The notes beneath the pieces are model-generated. The model was given only the letters and a program-made list of their open reading frames with translations, was not told where the DNA came from and ran no database searches. The position numbers and the translations under genes are program-made. From Carcharhinus amblyrhynchos (taxonomy: Eukaryota): 64,000 bases of DNA. The stretch lies in the NCBI GenBank assembly GCA_965287045.1, contig OZ336873.1:39494001-39558000 (forward strand), read 5' to 3'. Each line of letters opens with the position of its first letter. The first letter of the stretch is position 1. Below, one piece after another: positions 4,569 to 62,282 of the stretch.

Positions 4569-5595
4569 CTATGAGTTCAGAGAAAAAAAATGTTTTAATT
4601 CAAGACTATTACAATTTATGCAAGGATCTATGTGCTGACACTAAAGATGTAGGCAGCAATTTAAGCTTAACTAATCCACTAAGAAACTGAGAACATTGCC
4701 GGTTTATGATCCTGCCTGATTTTATTCTCCACTGACATTAATGAAAAGTCAGATTGAGTGGGGTGCAAAGTTGATGTTCCACCTAACCCCATGAGTTTCC
4801 CACTGGCAAGTTAAAATTGCCTCCATTATCTTTGATACTGTCATTTTAATATTCATCTACTACAACAAAAGTGGGCATGAGAGACAGAAATTGTAATGAT
4901 TAAACTACATTAACTTAATCCAACTCAGTTCTCTAGATGTTCATAAAAGCTTATTTTAAATTTGTTAAACCTTTTAATAACCAGTCAGTAACTGCACAGT
5001 AATTAACTGCTTGCTGTACACTAACTTTAAAATCAACAGATGGATGGTATCTTGATATACACCATAACATTTGATTGTACATAGTTCTGAATAGTTTTCT
5101 TGTCTCTCACCCAGGTCATTATTGTGAATATTGTGTGCATGAGGACAGAGGGAAAATGGAAGTAATTTGCCCCATGGCACTTCCATGCATCTTCAAAAGA
5201 TAGAAAGACAGATGTTTCTTTATGCAGCAGCTTTCAGGGTCTCTGACTGTAATCAGTGACTGAACATCTATGCATAATTACGTAAGTAAATTGGTCCCCT
5301 TGGCTCAAGAACATTGAATAGATGGAATGTCAACAGTAGTTACCCTGCTCATTGACAACTCAGCTAATCATTGGCCACAAAATTACATATAATTGACAGG
5401 ATTCTCTGGTCTTGTCTGTGGTAAGACCCATTGTGAGTAAGAACAGAAAATTTGGCATTGCAGCCAAAACTCCATTCATTTTCAGCAGAAAATCTTTGCA
5501 AATGAGGATGGAGATTGTGGCCAGTGATCGTATTTAACGCTAGCCTGCACCTCTTAAAGGCAGATGCATCTGAGTAACCACTTCCACCACACTAG

Positions 5596-17700: not shown

Positions 17701-17993
17701 GTATTTTAAAATCTGCATGACCGATTTCATCATGTAAAATTGTGTCTCCGTATTTCCATTCGAAAACTTGATAGTGCTTCAATGATTTGTAATAACATCA
17801 GCAAGAAAGCTGAAAGTTGTAACAAGTGTGAAATAATTGAATTTAACATGTCACAATTTCACAGGCAATAATGTGAAATGCCTTAGCATAATGTAATTAG
17901 CAAGTCGTGTATGCAAGGAATGCTTATAGTACTTTACTAAAGTTTGAAGACTTATTACAAACATATAAGGTTGAAATGGTGTATTTTACTCAC

Positions 17994-18446
17994 CAATCAA
18001 AACTTCTCTGCCAAATATTCTGCCATTCTTTTCAAGGATTTCATACATTCTCAACTGGCATGCTGCAATAGTTTCAAAGTCTGTGCCATATGCGAGTTGT
18101 ACTTCTAGTTTTATTGTGTTTTTCTGTAAATACTGTAGGAAGAAGTCGTCCACTCGGACAACATACTGAGATGTGAAGTCAAATGCTGGCTGCAATCCAT
18201 GTATTACAGGGGTGGACTGGAGTTCATAGTCATAGAAAGCATAGGTACAGAAAGTAGCAGGTTCTTGCTCACCGAAAACCTTAATGGCTTCAGGAGAGAA
18301 GGTCACTTTGCTGATATGGATCTCAAATATGTTTTCTCCACGCTCTAAATGGACAGTTTCATCAAATTCATCAGCTTCATCATCGGTTGTTATTTCTGGT
18401 TTGAATTTGAATTGTTTGGTGCCATAGGCTATGTCTTTGAGTTGGG
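17994..18446 (-). CDS. RPGRIP1L: RPGRIP1L coding exon, 453 bp (first C2 domain)
   Basis: tttcag| ... |gtgagt; [18 protein letters not shown]...[13 protein letters not shown]...[16 protein letters not shown]...ILEKNGRIF (ORF 17986..18507). Confidence 0.97.
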
Positions 18447-20908
18447 CTGAAATAGATGAAAACAGATGCAATTTTTCTATATTTTTCATTAAAGCAACAG
18501 AACACAAGGTTTTCTCTATGCGGAAAACAGATGGTCTGGAATATAAACACCATTGTTATCATTTTTTTAACATGTTCTTCAGTATAGAAGGTTTGAAATA
18601 GCCCTGCAAATTCTTAGAATATGAGCTACTCAGTATGCAGGGATTACAACTTGACATTTATTCTGGGATAAATCAGATGAAACACTGCATAGCAAAGGCC
18701 TTTTTAACACACTGTAGGGACATCTTAATTAAAACTTTCAACAGGAAATTACTAAGATGCTGGTCTGCTAATGATATTGCTTTTAAAAAGGTGGTTAACC
18801 CATAGTAGACCCAAATGTTGTGGGTCTTAAAATGAAAAAGAAAGATGATTTCTTGAGCAAATATGCTGATAAAAAAGGCTCAAGAAACATTGTATAATAC
18901 ATATATGAATGAAAAGCATAAGTACGTAAATGCAACTTGATGTCACAGAGTTATCAGATTTTATTTTCCATTTTGGAGAAGGTAGTCTCTGTTATTTCTA
19001 GCAAAATTGTAAGCAGGTTCTTTATATGTGTAGTTTATAGTTTCATTACAAATATTGTGCAGAAACAATCTTTCCTCAGGGCAAGTTCCTGAACTTGGCT
19101 GCACTGACAGAGGCTGATGCTATGCAGAAACAAAGCATCTTCCTGTAGCAAAAAAAAAGTAATCAGACAACAGATGCTGAGAAACTGTGTGAATAATCTA
19201 CAGCAGGTGGAAGTCCAGGTTATTTATCTATCTCACAGTCAGAGAATAACTAAAAATTGCAAGTTAAAAATAAAATACAAGCGTAATAACATAATAAACC
19301 ACTGCAAAAGAAATAAACTTACTATACCCTCATACGTTATGTTGATTGACTTGTAAAATACCTTCTGAAATGGCCTAGCAAGCAGTTCAAGGGCAATTAG
19401 GAGTGGGCAATAAATGCTAGTGTAGCCAGTGATGCTCACATCCCATGAATGAATATAAAGAAGTTCTGTTTTTCAGTTATTTACATAATGCTCTCATGAA
19501 CATCACCGTGATTCTTTTTGCATCTGGTATTCATACTTTCTTTTAGTACTGGTTTTCATAAGCAGCAAACTTAAATTACAAAGCACTACCAGTTAATTAT
19601 TTTACTTCACAAACTACAAATTTGTACAAAAAATATAGAAATAAAGCTGACATATATGTACAAGATTTTAAAACCTAAGTAAATGGAAAATAAGATCGGA
19701 TATGGTGTAAAACAGGCTGCCCAACTGTATTGAGCCCATGTTGGGCTACCAACATAGATTAATTGTATCCCAATTCATTCTCTTCTTTTTGGCTTTGGAG
19801 CCATGCTGCGTTTCAGGCTCTGATAATTCACCTAGATTTTTCAAATGAAACAACAGGAAGTCCAACAGGGGGAGGCAGGCAGTAAATTAATCTTGAGAGT
19901 ACCGTAACTGTTAATAAACTGTTTATGTTGTGGCATGATGGTTTATATCATCTAAGTTTAAAGCTTTGTTGTTCCCTTGAGAGCATTCATTATATTCAAC
20001 AGGAGACACTCAGCAGTGAAAGTCATAAGGAACTGTAAAGTGTGGTATGATCTTCAACTTTGATATTTATGATACACAATATCTGATACTTAACTATTGT
20101 CTCAAGAGATTTTTTTTATATTTCTATGTGGAATCCCATTACTGCTGCAGAATGAAATTCTGACTATGCGACTGATTTATTCATATTTCGTTTATAAGCA
20201 TTATTTTTGCTTGTAAAAAGATCAGTTTATTTGGCCTGATATTTATAGATGGATGGAGATTTTGAGGCTTCATGTCTGTCAGAAATAGAGTGAAATTGCC
20301 CAGAAAATGGGCTTATTGTTTCACTCCTGCCAATTGCCCCGAGCCCACCTTTGTAAGGCCAGGTGTCTGTTAAAGTTATGCAATTAGCTGTGAATGGTAT
20401 GTTAATTAGATTGTCAAGATATACAGATGAAGGGCATTGTTTAATTAAACACCTAGAGCACTTATAAAGAAGGAAGGCTATGTTTGCATTGAGATGCCCC
20501 TAGAAGAGGATCACGCAGTATCCACTGGTACTCTTGAGACCTTCTGCAATCGTTGGGCACCATGGGGATGGAGTGCTTCATTGGGCACCTAAACATTTTC
20601 ATTTAATTAGTTAAGTTTGCTTTGGAGTTTATTTCTGTTCCAGGTCCCCTTTAAAGGGCTATTACTTTAGTTTGTCCATTTGTTTAACTGTTCAATCAGA
20701 AAAGTAGAAAGAAGGAAGGCCCCTTTGAAGGGCTGTCAACTAGTTAATCAGTTTTTTAAAGAACATATAAAGACGGACGGCTGGGGCACTTGGAATTAAG
20801 TAAAAGGCAGATATATGAAATGATGCAATTTGCAAATAAACTGATCAGCAAGACAAAAATTTGCCTCTAGTTTCACACTTCCCCACCTGGCTTGGGATTC
20901 AATTAAAA

Positions 20909-20926
20909 TTTTAGCAGAAGATGGTT
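20909..20926 (+). other. Primer-binding site complementary to the initiator tRNA-Met 3' end
   Basis: ttttagcagaagatggtt vs TGGTAGCAGAGGATGGTT, 15/18 identity, immediately upstream of the gag remnant. Confidence 0.75.
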
Positions 20927-20981
20927 ACTTAAAGGTGAAGAAAGCAAGTGTAAATTGTCAGGGTATGATTTCCCATTGATG

Positions 20982-21108
20982 GGGTGGGATTTTATGGCCT
21001 CTGTCATCCCGAAACCGCAAAATCTTGCCAAAGGACAATGGACATTTCCATGATCCACCGTTCACCTGCTCTGATTCCCATGGCAGGTGAGCCAGTAAAA
21101 TTCTGACC
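20982..21108. mobile_element. MITE with ATG 3-bp TSD inserted in Copia gag
   Basis: GGGTGGGATTTTA...TAAAATTCTGACC; ATG at 20979-20981 and 21109-21111; removing it restores GYDFPLMTSEAEPY. Confidence 0.8.
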
Positions 21109-21974
21109 ATGACCTCTGAAGCTGAACCTTATGACCAACGGATAAACAAAATGGATGTGTGAACATGGATTACATCCTTACCAAAGAGAAAGCAAGACAC
21201 GGCCTTGGCACTGGCCCTTCAAAATAAAAGTAAGTCAAATGCAAAGCATTTTGTAAGGTAGAGGCCAACCAGTTGGATACTGAGGAAAGTTTGGAGCTTC
21301 TATTAAGATCTATGAATAAAATTTACAAGAAAATTTGTCCATTAAAAGCCTAAGAGGTATGGTCAAACTTAGTAGATTTTGAAAGATGAATGGTTATTCC
21401 ATAGAGGAATGGACTATACAAAATATTGTAGAAACTCAGTTTAGAAATTCCTTACTCAGTGCACGCTTTCAAATTGTTGGATTGTGTTAAAAGTGTTACA
21501 AATAGACGGGCTCCTGGTCTTAATTGGAGTTAAATTCTCAGAAAAGAGTCACATTTTTGGATTAGATGTTAGATGCTTTTAAAAAAATCCTGGGAAAGCA
21601 GTCATTTCCATTAGCCTTCGTGGCACAAATGGGACATTCTACAGTGTTTCAGGAGATGGAGGACTCGATGATCTCAGTCTTTTGATTTTGTTCAGATATG
21701 GAGCATAAAGGTCAGGACTACAGAAGAATTACAGAAAAAATAAATGAAGATGAAGGCATTTTCAGCAGATGATAGGATTGACATACTAATAAACAAATGA
21801 ACCCCAGGAATGCCCAGGGAACTGCTAACAGATGTTTCAGATGTAACTCAAAATATCATTTTGCGGTAAATAACCCAAAGTGGAACTAGGTTTTCAAAGT
21901 GACGCACGTTCAGAAAGTTTTGAAGTTGAAGATGAGATTAATCAGTCTGAGCAAATTGTCTAGTCATCAGTTTA

Positions 21975-22265
21975 TTAACATACAAACATATGAATTAGGA
22001 GCAGAAGTAGGCCACTTGAGCGTGCTCCTCCATACAACAGAATCATGGACGATCTGATAACGATCTCAACCCCACATTCCTGCCTATCCCCGATAATATT
22101 TTATCCTCTTGTTAATCAAGAATCTGTCCAGTTCCACCTTAAAAATATTCAAAGATACTGCTTCCACTGCCTTTTGAGGAAGAGAGTTCCAGAGACTCTC
22201 AAGCCTCAGAGAAAAAATTCTCCTAATCTCCGTCTTAAATGAATGATGCCCCAGTTTTTAAACAT
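21975..22265 (-). mobile_element. CR1 LINE 3' fragment nested in the Copia element
   Basis: Reverse-complement CR1 3' UTR (ggagcagaagtaggcc) and C-terminal remnant. Confidence 0.75.
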
Positions 22266-24866
22266 TGACTGATTGCAAATTCATTTAAATGCACTGTGTT
22301 GGACAATAGTTGCAAATTGATGGTATGTTGAACAGATGGGTTAAACGTTTTTAAGATTCACGCAGTAGTAAGGATTGACATAAGGTTAGGGATTATGAAA
22401 GTTCTGCTTGTTTCTGGTTTGGGGATGACAACACATTGAGGTCATTGAAAAGAATGGTGATTCCATGCAGAGTAGCTGGAGTAAGCCACTTTATTTGTAG
22501 ATACCATTGCTGCTAGCTAGTCTTCCATGAAAAAGATCTAAATTAAACTGGACAATGATAAAACAATTGTCTTTGGGTGGATTGCAAATTTATTGACTTT
22601 CCAATCAGGATATTTTTGCATCCCTCTACCAAAACTCAACATCTCTAATCAGAGCATTGAGGAAGGGTGGTGGCATCAGATGATGGGAGAAAAAAAGCAA
22701 ACTGTCTCAAAGATACATCAACATTTTCACATCCCTCTTGTCGCAGATTAATACTCCTTTTGAAGGACTCAATCGTAATTAATGAATACACAAAGTTCTT
22801 TGAAGAGATGTGAAAACTGTGATATCAGCAAAAAGTATTGGAAAACACTATCAAGATCTCTTGTAATTCTCCCATTTGCAGAAGACTTTTATCAAGTAGG
22901 AGCAATGGATTTAAAAGTGTGGTTCAAGGACAGGAACAGTCTCACCTTGCATTATATATATGTACATGGCAATCAGATTCGGTCTTTTTATTGCAATACA
23001 TGGTAAAGACAAAAGAAGTGATTGTAGGTTAAATCATGGAAAAATGGATGGGGCTTTGACTGGAGGCACTAACTTAATTCTTGACTGACAATGGGGGAAA
23101 TGTGCCAATAATAAGTTTGAAGATATGCAAAAATATGAAAGCTGTTGAAAGGGCTTTCAACTGTAAACTTCATAACCACAATGGATTCTATGAAAGAAAT
23201 CACACAGTGATATTTGAAATGCTTCATAGCATCTTAGCCAACCAAGCAACCTGGTGGCTAACACCTGCCTTGGCATGGGCAGTCTATGCATAGAATTCAC
23301 TTCAAATGGCTGAGGTCTGCATCAATTGGTCTATGAGAGGAATTTTGAAATCACTTCTGTGTTGTGTGATAGCTCTCCAGCCCAAACAGAAACCACACTT
23401 AGCTCCAATTTTTCTGAGCACATGAAAGGCCAGATAGAAGGAGAAGGTCATTAATCAAGGCAGAAGTTTCAGAGAAAATTCAGCAAGCTTTACGGCTTTG
23501 CATAAGATTGTCCATGATAAATTTAATCATGGGATTTCATACAATATATTAGAAAGTCAGAAGGAGTTAAAAGGTTTGGATAAGATGATCGGACATTTGG
23601 GGAAGACATGGTTCAAGATTTGGTTCTTCGACATGGTAGTCAAACCATTAAAGTCCACTTATCTCATTTAATTATGATTGATTATATACTTTCAGAATCT
23701 GAGCAATCAGTAGAAGGCAACAAAGAACCCTGTACTAGACATACTCACATGCTTGACAGTTATGAGGTACAGAAAAAGTAGATAAGGGGCCAGGTGATGA
23801 CAAAGTGAAACTGACAAAAAGTAAAAGTTTATCTTACCCAAAGGACTGCTGCCTAACGTCAATGCTTACATTCAGAATGAATGGAGGGACATGCCATTTA
23901 CAGAGAAAGGAGGGAAAATAATGGGAACTTCAAGCATTTGGTAATCGTCCAAGTTGATGGACAGGAGGTAAGAATTATGAACTGGCAAAATGAGATGAAA
24001 CAGTGGAAAGCAAGAAAAAGCAATGTGAGTCTATATTATGTATTTGGGAGTGACTCTGGCACTAGGAAACAATCACATACTGGTGACAACTTGACAGATC
24101 TTGGGAGGGAGAGAACCAGTAGTTCAGAAAGACATAGGCAGGCAAATTAAAATCTTTGCTTAACTAGACCAAGAGATGGAACAATCTCGGGACACTATTA
24201 GAATGGAAGCCTTTCTGATCAGTAAGTTTTAATGGCTGCAAACAAGTTAGAATATCAGTTAATATGGAAGGCAACACCAAAAGAATTGGGATAGTTGGAA
24301 GGAATTTGGCATTTACTCTGAAATGCAAGATAGGGGACTGCCAGACTTATCACACAGATGGATATCTATTGAAAAATTACTCCCAGATTGTACATATAAG
24401 GCTGAAGCAAGACTAATGTGCCTGGGTTTTGAAGAGAGCCTTGAAGATCAAGATGTTACAGTAGACTCCCGCATGGCAGGAAAAGTAATCTGGAAAATTT
24501 CTTTGCTCTGTTTCATGGGAATTGAGTCAGTCGATATAAAAACCATAGTTTTTGCAGATTGAAACGTTTTGAAACCACCTAAACAAGCGAGTGTTTAGAA
24601 GGGAATCTGTGAAATTAAACAAATGCATTTATGGATTGAATGAGAGTATGGATTTCTTGAATAGGTCTGCTGTACTGGAAGTAAATGTACTCAGCTGAAA
24701 ACAGATCCAGCAATGTTCTACTGGTATCACAAAAAGAATCTCTCAATCATCTTTTAAGATGTATGTCGATAATTTTCTATGGGAGGTTCTGGGAAATTAA
24801 AATCATTTGTTATAAGAAGAGAATTTAAGATTGGAAGTCAGGCTTTTGAAGGCCTTTAAACAAATG

Positions 24867-26537
24867 GGCCTAGATTTTCACCGAGTTAGGGTGATTCAGG
24901 AGTCCTTTAAAAATTATTAGCAGATGATGTTTCTGGGATCCCTGACCCTATTCCTGGGCTGTCTAATTTTCAGGAGTGTCTTTAAAGGGTCTGGGCTCTT
25001 TCCTGTCAAAAGCACGTATTCAGCACTCATGGCAAGGTTGGTTTCTTTGGAGGATAGGCATGTCCTACTCGACCACAATAATCCTGAAATTAGGCCATGT
25101 TTTTAAAGAAGTGTGGTTCTCGTCTCCAAACGGGAGTCACAAGTCCAGTGTGCACACGGGGATCTTTTAAAAGGGAAATTCAAGAGGTCTCCCTCATGGA
25201 TCCTGTGCCAAGTTACAACTCTCACCCACCTCCTCAGATTCCTCAATGTCCCCTATGCCAAGCTCTGGGAATTCCATGCTCATTGACTTCTAGAATTAAT
25301 AAACATGATAAGAACATTAATGATGTGGTTGGTCCCTTTGAAGTTTCAAAAGACACAAATGTTTGAAACTTTTAAATTTACGTCAACAAATAGTGTGAAA
25401 TTGACAGCAGAGATCAGAAAGCCTGATCTGTCAATCAATGTTTCTTTTTGGGTAGGTATTCTCACATTATACTAGCGTCTGGGCTCTATGCAGGTCTCAT
25501 TATATATTCTTAGCTGACAGCCCAGGAACTATTAAAATACGAGAGCAAATATTGGGGTGACAAGATGGCACAGTGGTTAGTACTGCTACCTCACAGCACC
25601 AGGGACGCGGATTCAATTCCCACCTTGGGTCATTGTCTGTGTGGAGTTTGCACATTCTCCTTGTGTCTGTGTGGATTTCCTCTGGATGCTCCAGTTTCTT
25701 CCCATTGTCCAAAGATGTGCGAGTTAGGTGGATTGGCCATGCTAAGTTACCTTTTAGAGTCAGGGGGACTAGCTAGAGTAAATGAATGGGGTTATGGGGA
25801 TAAGGCCTGGGTGGGATTTCGGTCGATGCAGATTTGATGGGCTGAATGAGCTCCTTCAGTACTGTAGGGATTCAATGATTTTACCCAAAGGGAAGCATTA
25901 TTTGATTGACAGGTCATAGATTGTGATTTCTGCTGTCAATTTCACGATGTTTGCTGACATAAGTTAATTAGTTTCCAGGGTTTGTGATTTTTGAAACTTC
26001 AAAGGGCCTGGATAGTTGATACTTTCATTAATTTAGTTCAAACCTTTTTTCCCCCCAAATATATGAGAAATTTGTCAATGGATTACATTTTTCACAATTA
26101 TTTATTTATATATAGCACTATAGATTTTAGTGTTCATTAATTCTAAAGTGTACAGTGACTCAATGGGCATGAAAATGCCAGAGATTGGCACAGAAGGCAT
26201 GAGGGGCCTAAGATGTGGGTGACAGGGCACAGCATAACCTGGGGCCATGGTGGTAGAGAGGCTGGGTAGAGAGCATGAGGTGGCAGAGATGGGACATGGG
26301 GAGTGTTGGGGGGAGGGAAGGGCGAGAGCTGGAAAGCCCATATACTTCTACCTCTGCATACTGAGGAGGCCTTTTAAATCGTATACCTCAAACCCAGCAG
26401 CTGCCACAATTTCAGCCAGCACCCAGCCCTCAGCATTGAAGATTTTGCCTTTGTGGGCATTCATCCCTGCAGCTGGCAGACTGAATTAAGAATTTTTCCA
26501 ACTTCCCCTATCTGTCTCGACAATAAAAATCCAGGCC
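24867..26537. mobile_element. Foldback non-autonomous TIR element (Harbinger-like) inserted in Copia RT
   Basis: TIR GGCCTAGATTTT / AAAATCCAGGCC (11/12); TSD ATG/ATA; long internal inverted arms 25230-25455 vs 25880-26210. Confidence 0.8.
25555..25880 (+). mobile_element. V-SINE (HE1-like) in the loop of the foldback element
   Basis: Full head, V core and CR1-like tail. Confidence 0.88.
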
Positions 26538-27317
26538 ATAGGCTGAGACATTAATAACATTAAATCAGGAATCATCTTGAATAAACAATCAGATGTAGAA
26601 AGCAATATGTGTTTCCTGATAAATTAAGCCACAGGAATATGAAGTTGCACCCAAAGAAAAAAACTTGATTGGACAGGTAGATTGGCTATGTATTCAGACC
26701 AATACCTGATGCCAATTATGATGTGTTGGAACTTAGTACTATAGTGAAACTTATTACAATTGTGAGGGCAAATAACATGAGAAACAAGATCAATCTGGAG
26801 AATGCACACTCAAGTTTCCAGTCCTGGGTGAGCTGAGAGACAGGAAATTAGTCATTTTTAGTGATGCTTCCCATGGCAATCTTCCACATGGATACTGTTG
26901 GGTTTATAACACACTTGGTCTGTGAAAATGGAAAATGTTGTCCTTGGTCTGGGAAGCAATGAAATTAAAAGGGGTGGTTACAAGTGGCAGAAAAACTGGC
27001 TCTAGTAGATGCAATAATTATCAGATTTTACTTAGCAAACAATTTGAGGGAAATATGACACAAGCAGCATTCTGAAAAAATGTGGGCATTGAATGTATGG
27101 CAGATAATTGTTGTTCATAAGGTAGTGCATGTTTGGTAAAAAGTGTGACTGAGAAAAGATTGATTGTGCTAGTATAAAAATGTTAGAGAGAGAAACTAGA
27201 TCTGTCTGATAATATGGGTGCATGCAAGTCACCAATTATCAGACTGCTTAAAAAAAAACGAATGATTGATTGGGAAATTGTTGGAGGACCTGGAAGAGGG
27301 ATGTCTTGTTTACTTTC

Positions 27318-28765
27318 AATTATTTCATGTGTCGCTGGCTATGCCAGCACTTTTGTTGCCAATCCCTAATTGCCTTTGAGAAGGGGATCTTGAACAGCCG
27401 TAATCCACGTGGTGTAAATACATTGTTTAGGAGGGAATTCCAGGATTTTGACCCAGCAACAGTGAAGGGCCAACAATATAGTTCCAAGTCAGAATGATGT
27501 AGCTTGGCAGGGAACTTGCAGATGGTGGTTTTCCCTTGCCACTGCTGCCTTTGTCCTTCTAGATGATAGAGGACACTGGTTTACCATTTATATAGATGAT
27601 CTGGAGGAGGGAACCGAGTGTAGGGTGTCGAAATTTGCTGATGACACCAAGATTGGGGGAAAGGCAAATTGTGCGGAGGGTGTGGAGAGTCTGCAGAAGG
27701 ATCTAGATAGGCTGGGCGAATGGGCCAGGAAATGGCAAATGGAATTTAATGTTGGCAAGTGTGAGGTGGTCCACTTTGGTAGGAAGAATGGTAGGAAGGA
27801 CTATTACTTACGTGGCGAAAAACTGCAGCAGGCGACGGTGCAGAGGGACCTCGGGGTCCTTGTGCATGACTCGCAAAAACCCAGCGTGCAGGTGCAGCAG
27901 GTGGTCAGGAAGGCGAATGGGATGCTGGCCTTCATAGCGAGGGGGATTGAATATAAAAGTAGGGAGGTCTTGCTGCAGCTGTATAGGGCATTGGTGAGGC
28001 CGCAGCTGGAGTACTGTGTGCAGTTTTGGGCGCCGCACCTGCGCAAGGATATTTTGGCCTTGGAGGGAGTGCAGAGGAGGTTTACTAGGCTGATACCGGA
28101 GTTGAGGGGGTTGAGCTATGAGGAGAGGCTGAATAAACTAGGCTTGTACTCGTTAGAGTTTAGAAGAATGAGGGGAGATCTCATTGAGACGTATAAGATG
28201 ATGAATGGGATGGATAGGATAGAGGTGGAAAGACTCTTCCCGCTCAAAAAAGACAGTAGGACTAGGGGGCACAGCCTCAAGATAAAGGGGGGGCGGTTCA
28301 GAACGGAGTTGAGGAGGAACTTCTTCACTCAAAGGGTGGTGAATCTCTGGAATTCTCTGCCCGTTGAAGTGGTGGAGGCTGCCTCGCTAAATATTTTTAA
28401 GAAGCGGGTTGATGGGTTTTTGATAAGAGAAGGGATTAAGGGTTATGGGGAGAGGGCGGGAAAGTGGAACTGAGCCACGACAGATCAGCCATGATCTTAT
28501 TGAATGGCGGGGCAGGCTCGAAGGGCCAGATGGCCTACTTCTGCTCCTATTTCTTATGTTCTTATGTTCTTATGTTCTTATGGTTTGGAAGGTGCTATCG
28601 AAGGAGCATTGGTGAATTATTGTAGTTAGAACACGGGGATGCCACTGTGCATCGATGGTGGAGGGAGTAAATTTTAAAGGTGGTGGATGGGGTACCAATG
28701 AGGCAGGCCACATAGTTCTGAATGCTTGAGTGTTGGAGCTGCACTAATTCAGGCAAGTGGAGACT
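27318..28765 (-). mobile_element. Older CR1/L2-group LINE 3' fragment, split by the young CR1
   Basis: Collinear with 28836-29300; host reads ...ggacactggttt|ggaaggtgc... across the insertion. Confidence 0.75.
27583..28580 (+). mobile_element. Young 5'-truncated CR1 LINE: uninterrupted RT C-terminal ORF, 3' UTR and (TTCTTATG)n tail
   Basis: Open frame 27580-28473: FTIYIDDLEEG..SKFADDTK..FNVGKCEVVHFG..RPQLEYCVQFWAP..TRGHSLK..FFTQRVVNLWNSLP; 4x ttcttatg; TSD tggttt at 27577-27582 and 28581-28586. Confidence 0.96.
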
Positions 28766-28835
28766 AGAAATAGGTAATGCTGCATTTTATTTATAAACCG
28801 ATAATTGAGAAAAGCAATTATATCTTTTTGTAAAA

Positions 28836-29753
28836 TTCATTTATGGGATGTGGGGTCACTGGCTAGGCCAGCATTCATTGCCCATCCCTAGATTCTCTTT
28901 AGAAGATGGCGGTCAGCTGCCTTCTTGAACCGCTGCAGTCTCTGAGGTGTAGGTATACACATAGTGTGTTAGGGAGGGAATTCCAGGATTTTGCCTCAGG
29001 GCCAGTGAAGGAATGACAATATATTTGGTGAGTGACTTAGAGAGAAATCTGGTATTCCCAGGGTATCTATTGCTTTTGTCCTTTTAGATGAAAATGGTCC
29101 TGGGTTTGAAAGGTGCTGACTAAGGAACCTTGGTGAGTTTCTGCAGTGCATCATGTAAATGGTCCAAACGGCTGCTTTAGTTGGTGGTGGAGGGATTGAA
29201 TGTTTGTAGAAGGGGTAGCAATTAAGCTACCTGTTTTGTCCTTGTTGGTATTGAATTTCTTGAGTGTTGTTGGAGTTGCACTCATCTAGGCAAGTGGACA
29301 ATATTCCATTACACTCCTGACTTGTGCCTTGTAGATGGTGCATAAGCTTTGGGAGTCAGGAGGTGAATTACTCATCACAGGATTCCTAGCCTTTGGCCTG
29401 CTCTGGTAGCCATAGTATTTATATGGCTGGTATATTTCAGTTTCCGGTCAATGGTAACTTCCAGGATGTTGTTAGTGGGGTATTCAGCAATGGCAATGCC
29501 ATTGAATGTCAATGGGTGATGGTTAGATCCGCTCTTGTTAGAGATGATCATTGCTTGACACTTGTGCAGTGTGAATGTTACTTGCTATTTGTCAGCATTT
29601 GGATATGGACTGCTTCAGTATCTAAGAGATTACAAATGGTGTTGAACATTGTACAGTCAACAGCAAACATCCCCACTCCGACCTTATGGTGGAAGGGAGC
29701 TCATTGATGAAGCAACCTAACATTGTTGGATCTAGGACACTATCCTGAGGAAC
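28836..29753 (-). mobile_element. CR1/L2-group LINE 3' fragment (RT motifs to 3' tail)
   Basis: Minus strand VPQDSVL (PQGSVLG) ~29735 and VGMFAVD (FADD) ~29665; 3' tail ...gggatgggcaatgaatgctggcctagccag..cccacatcccataaatgaa. Confidence 0.8.
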
Positions 29754-30431
29754 CAAGTTCTTTACGTATAGAAATCAGGGACAATTTAAATTAGACCCCG
29801 ATACTCACTGCAGGACACTGTGGACAAAACATGTCCTGTGCAGTATCAACTTCTGATCTTGACACAGAGGACTCAAAAAGATTTTACTTATTTTTGTAGG
29901 GGATGAAGGAGTAGAAATGCTACTCCAGGCTGCAAGAAGCAAGCTTTGATGTTGCTGCATAGTGTCCCCATTTTCATGAAAGAGCACCTTGCCACCAGTT
30001 AAATTGCCTGATATTGCAAAAGCCTGGAATAAGTGGGAATGCTCCAGAAAGCTTGCTTTTAATCAGGGCAGTCATTTATTAATCAGTCTTGGTCCTCTGA
30101 AAATCACAGAGAGAATCTACTCCATATTGTCTTACATTTTTCTTTGGCAACATGCAAAACTCTTGTGAGGCATTCTATAAAAAGCTGTGACTACACTGAT
30201 TATTGACTGAAATGTGCAAAACACAAGGCGCATTTTTATGGACTGAAAAGCGATCCCATGCTAGCACAGGATCTGTACATATGGTTTAACAGTTCACCCA
30301 GTTGCTAACATAATGAGAATCCAGAAGCCAGGAACCGACATGGCTGTATATTACCAACACAAAATGTTTATATTGGGAATCAAATAGAATTTTATATTAG
30401 AAACTGCTTTTAAAAGGTTGTTTGCTCATAC

Positions 30432-30549
30432 CTTCAAGTTTTCTGATTCGATCAGCCCTAATGTCAAGCAGCTGTGTGTACTGCTCCAGCTTAATCTCAT
30501 ATTCTCGATTGTTATCTTCCATTTTCCGTGTCACAGTATCAACTTCATT
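30432..30549 (-). CDS. RPGRIP1L: RPGRIP1L coding exon, 118 bp
   Basis: ttttag| ... |gtatg; [39 protein letters not shown]. Confidence 0.95.
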
Positions 30550-52180: not shown

Positions 52181-53631
52181 GGGCCCAATTTTACCATATT
52201 CATTCTAAGTGCCGATTCAGGGTGCAGTACAGATCCGACTTAGAAATCCACTTTCAGGCGCCCCCATACACTCTCAGCCATCTCCAGTCTGATTCGCGCT
52301 GTGGGCGGGATTTAGCGCTGTCGGAATGATCAGAGCTCTGAACTGCGCATGCCCAGTTAGAAAAAAATTGGAAAAAGCACGCCCGTGTCAGATCACTCCC
52401 AAGCCACAGGAAGCGGAGAAAGTGGCCTGGGAGCGAAAAGTGGGGCAGAAAGTGTATCTCGGGCAGATGGGGGGAGGGTGCAGATGGATCTCGGGTGGGG
52501 GGGGAGGGGGCGGGGGGACAGATCGATCTGTGATGGGGGACAGATGGATCTCTGGTGAGGGGGGCAGAGGAGTCTGCTGCCACTCTACAGGCGATCAGAC
52601 TGGGTAGTGGGAGGGTGGATAAGGCGGGCAGTGATGTGTGTGGGTAGTGGGGGGTGGATAAGGGACACACACACACACATCACTGTCCCCCTTACTCACC
52701 CCCCACTACTCAGACTGATCGCCACCCCTGCCTCCCCACCGATTGCCCGCAGAGTGACAGCGGACCTCCCTGCCCCCACACCAGAGACCCATCTGCACCC
52801 CCCCACCCACCCATCAGAGATCTATCTGACCCAACTCCCTCCTCCACCCCCCCCCCAAGACAATGATCTGGCCTCACCCACCCCCCCGACAACGAACTTG
52901 CCTCACTCCTCCACCCCACCAAAGAGTGGTCCGGCCTCACTCACCACCCCCCTCCAGAAGAACATCTTGAGCTGCCTCCTCCCCCCCCCACCACCAGACA
53001 ACGATCAGCCCTCCCCCCCCACCACCAGACAACGATCAGGCACACCCCCGCCCCCCCCCAAAACCAGACAATGGTCAGCCTTCCCCCCCCACCACCAGAC
53101 AACGATCAACCCTCCTCCCCACCACCAGACAAAGATCAGCCCTCCCTCCCTGCCAGAGATATATCTGACCTGTCTCCTCTTCCTCCCCCCACAACCAGAC
53201 AATGATCTGGCCTCACTCCCCTCCTCCCCCGCTCTAACCAGAGAACGATCTGACCCGCCTCCCCCCCACCACTGATCTGAGTCAGAGAGCCGTTGGAAAA
53301 CTGAATGTGCTCTTAAAAGGCTGGAGTACCCGACTCAGACTTTCATGCAGCAGGTCCCTAAAAGCGCGGTTCCGGATTGATAAACACAGTGGTAAATGGG
53401 GAAATGCTGATAGAGTTGGGTGGGCAGTTCATTAGTTCAATTTAAATGCAAATCCATTTAAATTGTCATTGTGCCCGATTTGGGCGCAGAATGGATCCTT
53501 GCCATTCGTGGGTCTCGGTAAAGTGGCAGTCTGCACAGATGCGGGTGCAGATCGCAATAAAGGCCTCACACCTGACTTTACCACGATTTTGCGCCCGAAA
53601 ATGGGCACAAATTGTTGGTAAAATTGGGCCC
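52181..53631. mobile_element. Non-autonomous PIF/Harbinger element, 1451 bp, perfect 16-bp TIRs and CTT TSD
   Basis: GGGCCCAATTTTACCA (52181-52196) / TGGTAAAATTGGGCCC (53616-53631); CTT at 52178-52180 and 53632-53634. Confidence 0.92.
52850..53280 (+). repeat. C-rich minisatellite, about 12 degenerate 30-40 bp units with core ccagacaacgatcagcc
   Basis: Core recurs at about 52855, 52886, 52994, 53025, 53064, 53095, 53125, 53153, 53195, 53238, separated by poly-C runs. Confidence 0.85.
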
Positions 53632-59469: not shown

Positions 59470-62282
59470 AGCCAGAGAGGTTGGTCAGACTTTGTGGAGG
59501 CTATAAGTTGCTGTCCATCAAGTTTCTAAGATTGACAGCTACACCATGCCGTGGGTTAAAGACCTGTACATCAGGTTAACTGGTGGCCAGGAATATTCTA
59601 AATTGGACATGAGTTATACACATCTCCAACTTGAATTAGGTGAGCCTCCCTGGATATGTGAGAGAATTAATAAACACAAAGGCCTATATGAGTACACTTG
59701 ACAGCCCTTCATGGTCTCGTCCACATATGTCATTTCAACAGGTTGTGGAGAACGTACTGTAGGGTTATCTCAGGTAGCTGTGTACCCGAATAATGTCTTT
59801 GTCACAAGAACTTTGGAATGTGAATACTTAGCAAACCTGCAAGAGGTCTTATGGTGATTTTCAGAGGTAGGGGTACACCTGGAAAGGGAAAAATGTGTCT
59901 TCCAAACAAGTGCCATAACCTATTTGGGCTATCAGGTGGATAGGAAGTGCCTCCATCCAGAGGAGGACAAGGTAGGGGCCATTAGGAAGGCGCCAACTCC
60001 AAGGAATCCCATGGGATTGAAATTCTTCCTGGGGTTAGTGAATTTTTATAGGAAATTTAATCTGAATTTGGCTTCTTTACTGGTCCTCTTGCAGACCCTG
60101 ATTGGAAATATCAAAGTTGGTTTTGGAGGGCACCGTAACTGAAACAGCAGCTTTTGGCTTCTGTTGGTCCGAAAACGACCTCACCCTGACAAGCAATGTC
60201 TCCCCTCACAGGGTTGGGGTGGTACTGGCACGTCGCTGGAAAGATGTCAATTGCATATGTATCAAGGACTCTCTCGGATGCTGATTGGAAGTATTCCCAA
60301 ATCGAGAAAGAGGGGTTGGCAGTTGTCTTTGACATTAAAAAATTCCATCAATATGTCTACTGTAGATGCCTCATCATAGTAAGAGATCATAACCATTGCT
60401 GGGACTTTTAAAGAAGACAAAGCAATGCCCCTCATTGCCTCCACCTGGATACAGCATTGGGCTGTATTACTGGCAGCTTATGAATACCTCCTAGAGAACT
60501 GCCTTGGGACTCAGATAGCTATGGTGATGCACTGAGTCGTCTCCCATTGCTCATCAGCCCGTTTTTGCTACCAGCTGTGAAAGAGATCGTGATGACCCTC
60601 AATTCTTTAGTGCACCCTGCCGGTGTGTGCAAGGCAGATCAAGGCCAGTTTGCATAAGGAGCCAGTACTATCTAAATTAAAATACATATTACGTGGAGGA
60701 TTCAGAGGACAGCTCTCAGATGAAATGAAAATCTGACAAAGAAAGATGAGGTCAGTGTTTAGAATAGTACCATCTTCTGGGGGTCCCCATATTTGTCCCT
60801 TGCTCAGGGCTATGTCCAATATTTATGGGATTACATCATGGCCACCCTGGGATTTCAAAAATGAAAATACTAGCCAAGAGCTCCACATGGTGGCTTGGCC
60901 TTAATGCAAACATTACCGATTAAGTCAGACGCAGCGAGTCATGCTAGGAGAACCAAAAATACCTGTTACCTTCCGTACATCTATAGGAGTGGCCTGTTAG
61001 CACTGGGTGCGAGTGCATGTGGACTTCGCTGGGCCTTTAATAGATTGCATATTCTTAATTATGGTTGATGCGCAATCCAAATGGTTGGAGATACATTGCA
61101 TGAGTTCCACCAATTCCCATGCTACCACTGAGAAACTACGACAAAGTTTTTGGACACATGGGGCACCTTTAAGTCTTGGTTTCTGACAATTGCATTGCCT
61201 TTACTAGCACTGACTTTCAGACCTTTAGCTTTTCAGTGGAATCAAACACATCTGATCACCCGTCACCTAATCAGTTGACTGAATGGGCAGCGCAGTCTAA
61301 GTTCGACATGAAGGAGCAACCTGCAGCATCCACAGTGAACAAACTTGCATGATTTTTACTTGACTCTAGTACTATCTCTCACATTAGGACAGGAATCGCT
61401 CCAGTGGATCTGTCAAAAGACAGAGGCTTTGGAAAAAAATAAGCCTACTGTTCCCAAAACTGGCTGGGAGGGTGGAGCCCCAACAAGAGGACGAAAAAAA
61501 CTATGATTCTGCAAGGACAGAAATAACATTCAAATCCAGCGACCCAGTCCAAGTGAGGAGCTTTAGGGATGGTCTCAGTTGGGCCCCTGGGATCATAACA
61601 GAAAAATCGGGGCCCATGCCTTATAAGGTCCAAGTGCAGGGCAAAATTGTTAGGAAGTATTTGGAACCATCTCAGGAGTAGGGAGCCCATGCCATTGCAG
61701 ATGTCACTACCAGCCAAGGGGACAATCACTATCAACATCAAGCCATGACTGGAAGCCAACCCTCCACCTGTCCTCCTGGTGATGAGGACACAGATTCCAA
61801 AATGGAAGCGGAAGAGACTGGCACCCCAATTGAAACAAGACCTCAGGAAGAACCAGCATTAGTGCCTTTATGGTGCTCCCTTTGGAAGTGAAGGTCTCCG
61901 AGCCACTTCAAATTCCCAGATTTGGTCCTGCCTCCAATTGACCCCAGGCCGATCGCCAAGTGGTGGAAAAGGCCCACCAGTGGCCAGGTGCTAGGGAAGA
62001 GATAGCCTTGAGGAGGAAGGGATGGTAAAATGGCCACAAAGGATTGTCAATTAATCTCTCTGTGGGACCCATAGAGCACGAGCTCCACTATTAAGCAAGG
62101 GGAGGCTTGCCCAATAGGGAAGGAGCAGCTGTGAGTTTAAAACCAGCTGGCTGTATTCAGGACAGCAGTCTAAGGACTCCAAGGCTTGATCTGTACACTG
62201 TAGCTACAGAAGTGGTACTTTATGCATTTTTTAAATACAGGGTGATGTTAATGAAAGACTGACCTCAACGAGATTATTACAA
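59470..62282 (+). mobile_element. Decayed Ty3/Gypsy LTR retrotransposon (RT-RNase H-integrase, PPT, probable 3' LTR); 5' part missing
   Basis: DSYTMPWVKDL..YSKLDMS; IRKAPTPRN..LKFFLGLVNFY; SRTLSDADWKYSQIEKEGLAVVF; LHHGHPGISKMK; RVHVDFAGP; VDAQSKWLE; purine tract gaggaggaaggga at 62010-62022. Confidence 0.88.

Follow-up and report, generated by a model that had tools for sequence, protein, structure and literature searches.

Ty1/Copia retrotransposons have as their hallmark two long terminal repeats (LTRs) and a 5-base target duplication, and their cycle comprises transcription from the 5' LTR, a single gag-pol polyprotein, reverse transcription primed by initiator tRNA-Met in the Gag particle and integration by a DDE integrase. 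Within this superfamily, the GalEa clade was defined from galatheid squat lobsters. PMC3587641 records it from over 50 species that include 18 fishes, more than the "few teleosts" credited to it in an earlier sequence-only reading of the locus described here. The accessible parts of PMC5445492 and PMC3587641 give LTR borders TGT...CA at about 130-310 bases, with described LTR lengths of 138-311 (one outlier of 545) and 133-217, and a motif set composed of C2C4H4C, D[TS][GA]C, HHCC, D(35)E, KARLVA, D[IV]K.A[FY], [YH]VDD, TRPDI, SDAS and ADxxTK. The primer site of the clade, TGGTAGCAGAGC, follows the 5' LTR directly and has been described as "strictly conserved".

Among chondrichthyans, the accessible part of a survey of 263 animal genomes published in 2025 reports Copia in 5 genomes (PMC11889832). 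Scyliorhinus canicula has 719 Copia copies with 7 GalEa clusters and Carcharodon carcharias 210 copies with 3 GalEa clusters, three other species have 1-2 unplaced copies each, and sawfish and elephant shark have none. Marine horizontal transfer was already discussed in the same source as a cause of the GalEa range. The novelty claimed in the sequence-only reading is therefore lost, and its idea of a poorly described elasmobranch Copia family weakened, since these 7 + 3 shark clusters are already on record. In a mostly open-access literature, no paper was found on the locus described below or on an old GalEa family of sharks.

The window (the whole 64-kb stretch of DNA that was analysed) carries 13 exon matches to RPGRIP1L, the flanking host gene, which codes for the protein fantom on the minus strand and is a cilia gene. 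Named matches of its largest exon ranked Scyliorhinus torazame (95%), Carcharodon (93%), Cetorhinus (92%) and Heterodontus (91%). The exon on the upstream side of the intron (30421..30549, minus strand, with its splice ends) codes for residues 530-572 of P0283, and the one on the downstream side (17992..18453, minus strand) for residues 567-720, including the first C2 domain (Pfam C2-C2_1, E 2.9e-50). Because these exons code for consecutive residues and carry GT/AG ends, the Copia element found between them lies antisense in a 12-kb shark intron, so that the location proposed earlier is confirmed by RPGRIP1L exons on both sides with a catshark as the closest named match. We consider this element to be one dead copy of a Ty1/Copia LTR retrotransposon belonging to the GalEa clade, with a probability of roughly 0.88.

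Intact Copia polyproteins aligned colinearly by tblastn on the plus strand of the window at 21097-27313. A profile made from 24 intact relatives and run over the whole window gave 11 domain matches, all on the plus strand at 21109-27307 and in profile order, with iE of 1e-8 for gag, 8e-22 and 9e-30 for protease-integrase, 2.5e-24 for the reverse transcriptase (RT) and 3e-16 for RNase H; the same profile had zero matches elsewhere in the window and zero on the reversed window. The gag remnant (20927..21974, plus strand) is interrupted by a small insert soon after it begins and was recognized by tblastn, in a raw frame and by profile columns 12-280 at 21109-21889, with a degenerate zinc knuckle near 21833-21874 that keeps 3 of its 4 ligands. 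It is followed on the same strand by an aspartic protease remnant at 22269..22660 (P0111 residues 327-455, 47% identity over 114 residues, VLDNSC in a raw frame) and by an integrase remnant with HHCC and D-D-E traces at 22676..23703 (P0111 residues 475-817, 46% over 314 residues, MDLK, TDNGG and ERNH in raw frames). The first part of the RT lies at 24269..24865 (plus strand, profile iE 2.5e-24) and its end, together with RNase H, at 26538..27313 (plus strand, profile iE 1.6e-15 and 3.2e-16, with SDASHGNL, KSVTEKRL and SDCLKK in raw frames). The domains thus run from gag through protease, integrase and RT to RNase H, as announced by the sequence-only reading, whose four named motifs are also all present in raw frames, and this is the Copia order according to the accessible part of PMC3587641. 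A Gypsy element had also been announced in the window, and the order RT, RNase H, integrase is indeed seen at 59.5-61.7 kb, with a weak RT match (E 0.085).

Every motif of the GalEa set leaves a trace at the expected place in the element; SDAS is the only exact one, and the D-to-E spacing is 34 in the raw frame. The raw 200-residue frame at 24263-24862 had 80 matches among 1.84 billion proteins (best E 4.8e-17), and Pfam found RVT_2 in all 10 of the matches scanned, with rve ahead of RVT_2 in 7. The assignment to an RVT_2-type RT is indirect, made through these matches, as Pfam recognized no retroelement domain in six whole frames and eight fragments of the element with stops read as X. No long open frame exists in 20368-27310, the decayed RT had no match when proteins were searched by word index, and Rfam gave no match over 18400-30500. 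A search of the ESM Atlas returned RVT_2 clusters with almost no taxa, and among solved structures the matches were mostly retroviral integrases.

A decayed primer-binding site for initiator tRNA-Met was found at 20909..20926 (plus strand), with 15 of 18 positions identical to the human tRNA-iMet site, as printed in the accessible part of PMC1797187. The plus strand of the window has no second match of this quality, and 3 of 2000 shuffles of 20368-20980 reached the same score, so that the 15/18 tRNA-iMet site of the earlier reading stands. Its agreement with the site of the relatives L002 and L007 is 13/18, and with the published GalEa 12-mer 8/12, a degenerate match. The primer site fixes the 3' end of a candidate 5' LTR (20368..20908, plus strand) that starts with TGTTAA and ends one base away from TTAACA, an end found also in L002 and L003; an AATAAA stands 74 bases before this end, and 73 before it in L007. 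The start at 20368 is a candidate edge that depends on one TGTTAA hexamer, which is also present at 19909 and 20400, and with further TGT starts at 20636-20734 the edge could lie as far in as ~20735. Starting at 20368 the LTR would measure 541 bases, and that of L002 is ~160.

At the other end, the pair of LTRs that marks Ty1/Copia is absent from this copy. The search for a 3' LTR downstream gave a best score of 261, inside the null range of 243-326, and a simulated half-length sister LTR scored at least 355, in a test that would miss a remnant of a quarter or less. The lack of a 3' LTR noted previously was therefore reproduced, and we read it as a loss in this copy. The sole purine run (27292-27301) sits within the end of pol, and other repeats begin at once after it, occupying the expected position of the polypurine tract and 3' LTR (27315..29750, no strand assigned) by repeat matches that have no LTR similarity; one of them is a younger LINE at ~27580-28568 (plus strand) with a 335-residue frame matched by RVT_1 (E 1.9e-5). 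Some similarity to the candidate LTR was seen in a stretch of 73 bases (28766-28838), which in one test scored above 60 of 60 shuffles. Restricted tests gave 8/200 and 109/200, and the window-wide score is inside the null; the stretch was rejected, its alignment being also gappy and running through an unrelated LINE.

Three nested insertions interrupt the element, all of them listed in the earlier reading, with two sets of edges now shifted by 1-3 bases. At 21975..22265 (minus strand) there is a fragment of a LINE 3' end, presumably of the CR1 family, which shares 69% identity across 270 bases with the corresponding end of another LINE in the window (28303-28568). The junctions of the largest insertion (24866..26537, no strand assigned) delimit a 1.67-kb non-coding element with terminal inverted repeats, internal inverted arms and an AT target duplication, which contains at about 25554-25880 a SINE-like repeat with 6 matches elsewhere in the window. 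The smallest (20981..21108, no strand assigned) is, by its junctions, a miniature DNA element whose terminal inverted repeats open with GG and which also has an AT target duplication; both features are described for ISL2EU (PMC4482050). Once the three are removed the element span measures 4852 bases, close to the 4875-4949 of GalEa elements in the accessible part of PMC3587641.

The affinity of the element was sought through its RT. Among the 80 unbiased matches of one raw frame, 71 had GalEa-type RT motifs and none the motif that we take to define other Copia; of the remaining nine, seven were partial or short fragments (76-163 residues) and the others escaped the pattern. The raw six frames at the RT scored 66.6 bits with a GalEa-type profile (60 RT/RNase H rows), which remained at 59.0 bits without its 21 closest rows, versus -2.3 with an other-Copia profile (27 rows). 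The other-Copia motif was then found in 27 loci pulled from genome contigs, which are probably eukaryotic contaminants of bacterial assemblies. In a maximum likelihood tree of 93 rows, made by a quick method with no bootstrap, the RT/RNase H of the window falls inside a set of 22 rows (SH-aLRT 99) with an element of Petrolisthes manimaculis, with the 27 other Copia on a side to themselves (96). Its row has an X at each break, was extracted with the GalEa-type profile, a source of bias, and ends in a long branch (1.1). Loci with no long open RT/RNase H frame were dropped from the tree (27 of the pattern loci were kept), as were L016, L019 and L020, which failed the extraction pattern. The Copia assignment and the GalEa-type affinity advanced by the sequence-only reading are thus sustained by the matches, the profiles and the tree, the clade name being the part that we infer.

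The nearest rows by tree path are P0111 (1472 residues, from Logan, in a cluster of 9), which also had the best summed tblastn score among 135 proteins, and P0102, the Petrolisthes manimaculis protein KAK4327467.1. Decayed as the window copy is, its protease, integrase, RT and RNase H still show 44-47% identity in this comparison; the two proteins are intact and have tree branches of 0.15-0.22, against a broken copy with its branch of 1.1. Before decay, identity to P0111 in RT/RNase H may have been ~65-70%. Metagenome contigs searched with P0111 by itself yielded no relative, and neither the alignment nor the other-Copia pattern found any in viral contigs.

All the tree references are nameless except one crab element; GalEa1, Zeco1, the shark clusters and CoRex are not among them, and diatom CoDi and other branch-1 clades are unsampled by name. 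Since the tree has no named GalEa reference, the clade name rests on the motifs, the primer site and one galatheoid crab neighbour. An origin outside GalEa proper, in a different branch-1 clade of Copia or in a nameless group sister to GalEa, would fit a tree in which most neighbours are unnamed environmental proteins, and KARLVA, TRPDI and YVDD of the published table do occur in other Copia too. However, the relatives agree with the GalEa table in primer site, SDAS, D[TS][AG]C protease and LTR ends, the 22 rows include a single named member, which comes from a porcelain crab, and all the shark clusters placed in PMC11889832 are GalEa, making such an origin improbable. The GalEa-type primer start TGGTAGCAG has 16 matches in 44 related loci (2 of them being a duplicate end or an internal site), and the motifs of the relatives agree with the published rows of Zeco1 (Danio rerio) and Olco1 (Oryzias latipes). 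These two fish elements, compared by description in the accessible parts of PMC5445492 and PMC3587641, are like the present one in tRNA-Met primer site, SDAS, ADCLTK and Copia order and, as far as its candidate LTR goes, in TGTtaa...ttaCA ends. The present element departs from them by a longer candidate LTR, by the degenerate state of all its motifs and by the lack of a 3' LTR. The clusters of Scyliorhinus canicula and Carcharodon carcharias, also compared by description only, share with the GalEa copy in RPGRIP1L superfamily, clade and shark host, but according to the accessible text they were found by LTR pairs and are "not excessively damaged", and the copy studied here has no LTR pair and ~0.2 substitutions per site.

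Decay affects the whole element. At least 25 stops and 30 frameshifts were counted across 1188 aligned columns, in numbers that vary with the alignment penalties, and the breaks are spread at an even rate over all the frames. The description of the element as near-complete is not confirmed: nearly all the coding span is present, but with these breaks, three insertions, no 3' LTR and a 5' edge that is only a candidate. Invariant residues are kept at 109 of the 172 covered, a retention matched by neutral simulation at ~0.2 substitutions per site, with which the stop rate agrees, and CpG observed/expected is 0.18 and 0.04 here versus 0.51-0.62 in intact relatives. Part of the decay could predate the insertion. 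Sampled 31-mers of 22270-24860 are shared at 0.20-0.61 in sequencing runs of six other organisms from 6 studies, a count that leaves out the four best rows (one study, possibly the same source) and nine runs under 0.2. The likeliest explanation for exact word sharing by a copy in this state is a single insertion that became fixed and was passed down to related sharks, and an orthologous copy common to these species is thus suggested by the shared words.

The same sharing could be taken as a sign of selection on the relic, which might for instance regulate RPGRIP1L from within its intron, as four of the other organisms share 0.43-0.61 of the 31-mers; with complete coverage this would correspond to a divergence no higher than 1.6-2.7%. 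This is very improbable, given that the frames are all broken and at an even rate and that Rfam has no match; furthermore, sharks evolve slowly, judging from the accessible part of PMC10587355, and high sharing of 31-mers is for this reason expected without selection. The epaulette shark rate of 7e-10 in the accessible part of that paper is per generation and would date the copy to ~3e8 generations, which is not credible; this dating was rejected and, being per generation the only rate and implausible the figure that it yields, no age in years is claimed. Finally, a Gypsy or BEL/Pao element or chance motif matches, which the lack of retroelement domains by Pfam in the window's own frames might recall and whose grouping with the RT had been named beforehand as the refuting outcome, are refuted by RVT_2 in 10/10 scanned matches and an integrase ahead of the RT, with reversed and shuffled controls empty or low, and retain practically no probability.

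The GalEa copy would then have the following history. In its active period the family would have followed the ordinary Copia cycle with initiator tRNA-Met priming; one copy would have landed antisense in the RPGRIP1L intron of a shark ancestor and gone to fixation, and would have decayed afterwards without selection through stops, frameshifts, CpG loss and nested insertions, losing its 3' LTR. With breaks in all its domains and no 3' LTR it cannot move now, and nothing points to a host function. It is rather unlikely, but conceivable from its position among unnamed and crustacean elements, that it represents an old extinct GalEa family of sharks, apart from the young clusters reported and acquired by horizontal transfer from a marine invertebrate. 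The primer site is slightly nearer to the vertebrate-type tRNA (15/18) than are the sites of the relatives (13/18), as would be expected after replication in a vertebrate.

This element is an ordinary genomic fossil, one more copy of a clade already reported from sharks, and has little importance alone; its use would be as a dated marker. Surveys based on LTR pairs miss copies like the one in the RPGRIP1L intron, which therefore points to GalEa activity in sharks that well predates the young copies so far counted. If an orthologous copy is truly fixed, it would set a lower limit on the age of GalEa in sharks, and its presence or absence across shark families could date GalEa activity and bear on inheritance versus exchange of marine Copia clades.

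Two of the three inserts nested within the decayed GalEa-type Copia copy, at 20981-21108 and 24866-26537, are non-coding elements with terminal inverted repeats that start with GG and are flanked on either side by an AT duplication. Both features are described for the ISL2EU transposons (PMC4482050). However, of the four bases immediately outside the AT duplications of the two inserts, just one agrees with the A-AT-T target of ISL2EU (PMC4482050). The two inserts are possibly shark non-autonomous ISL2EU derivatives.

Within the candidate LTR (20640-20745) a short internal duplication of ~25 bases, with the copies ~75 bases apart, was spotted by eye. Downstream of the GalEa-type copy lies the 3' part of a younger LINE (27466-28568, + strand), presumably of the CR1 family, that contains a 335-residue open frame with an RVT_1 match, ends in a short tandem tail and is itself nested in an older repeat. 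The RPGRIP1L intron tract at 52257-53272 is repetitive, GC-rich and proline-rich in appearance, probably a low-complexity repeat. A different RPGRIP1L intron from that of the GalEa-type copy harbors a decayed Gypsy-type element (59480-61700, + strand) with the domain order RVT_1 (weak), RT_RNaseH (E 6.7e-12) and Integrase_H2C2 (E 2.2e-6).

Among metagenome contigs, L034-L040 were distant LTR elements with 22-26% identity to P0111, an intact Copia polyprotein, and formed long branches in the RT/RNase H tree. No tRNA-Met primer match was found in them, and some carry a TRPEA motif resembling the CQPEA of fungal GalEa. A search of genome contigs detected 99 stretches matching the Copia RT pattern in bacterial and archaeal assemblies (L045-L128), 27 of them with long open RT/RNase H frames; these stretches probably represent eukaryotic contamination.
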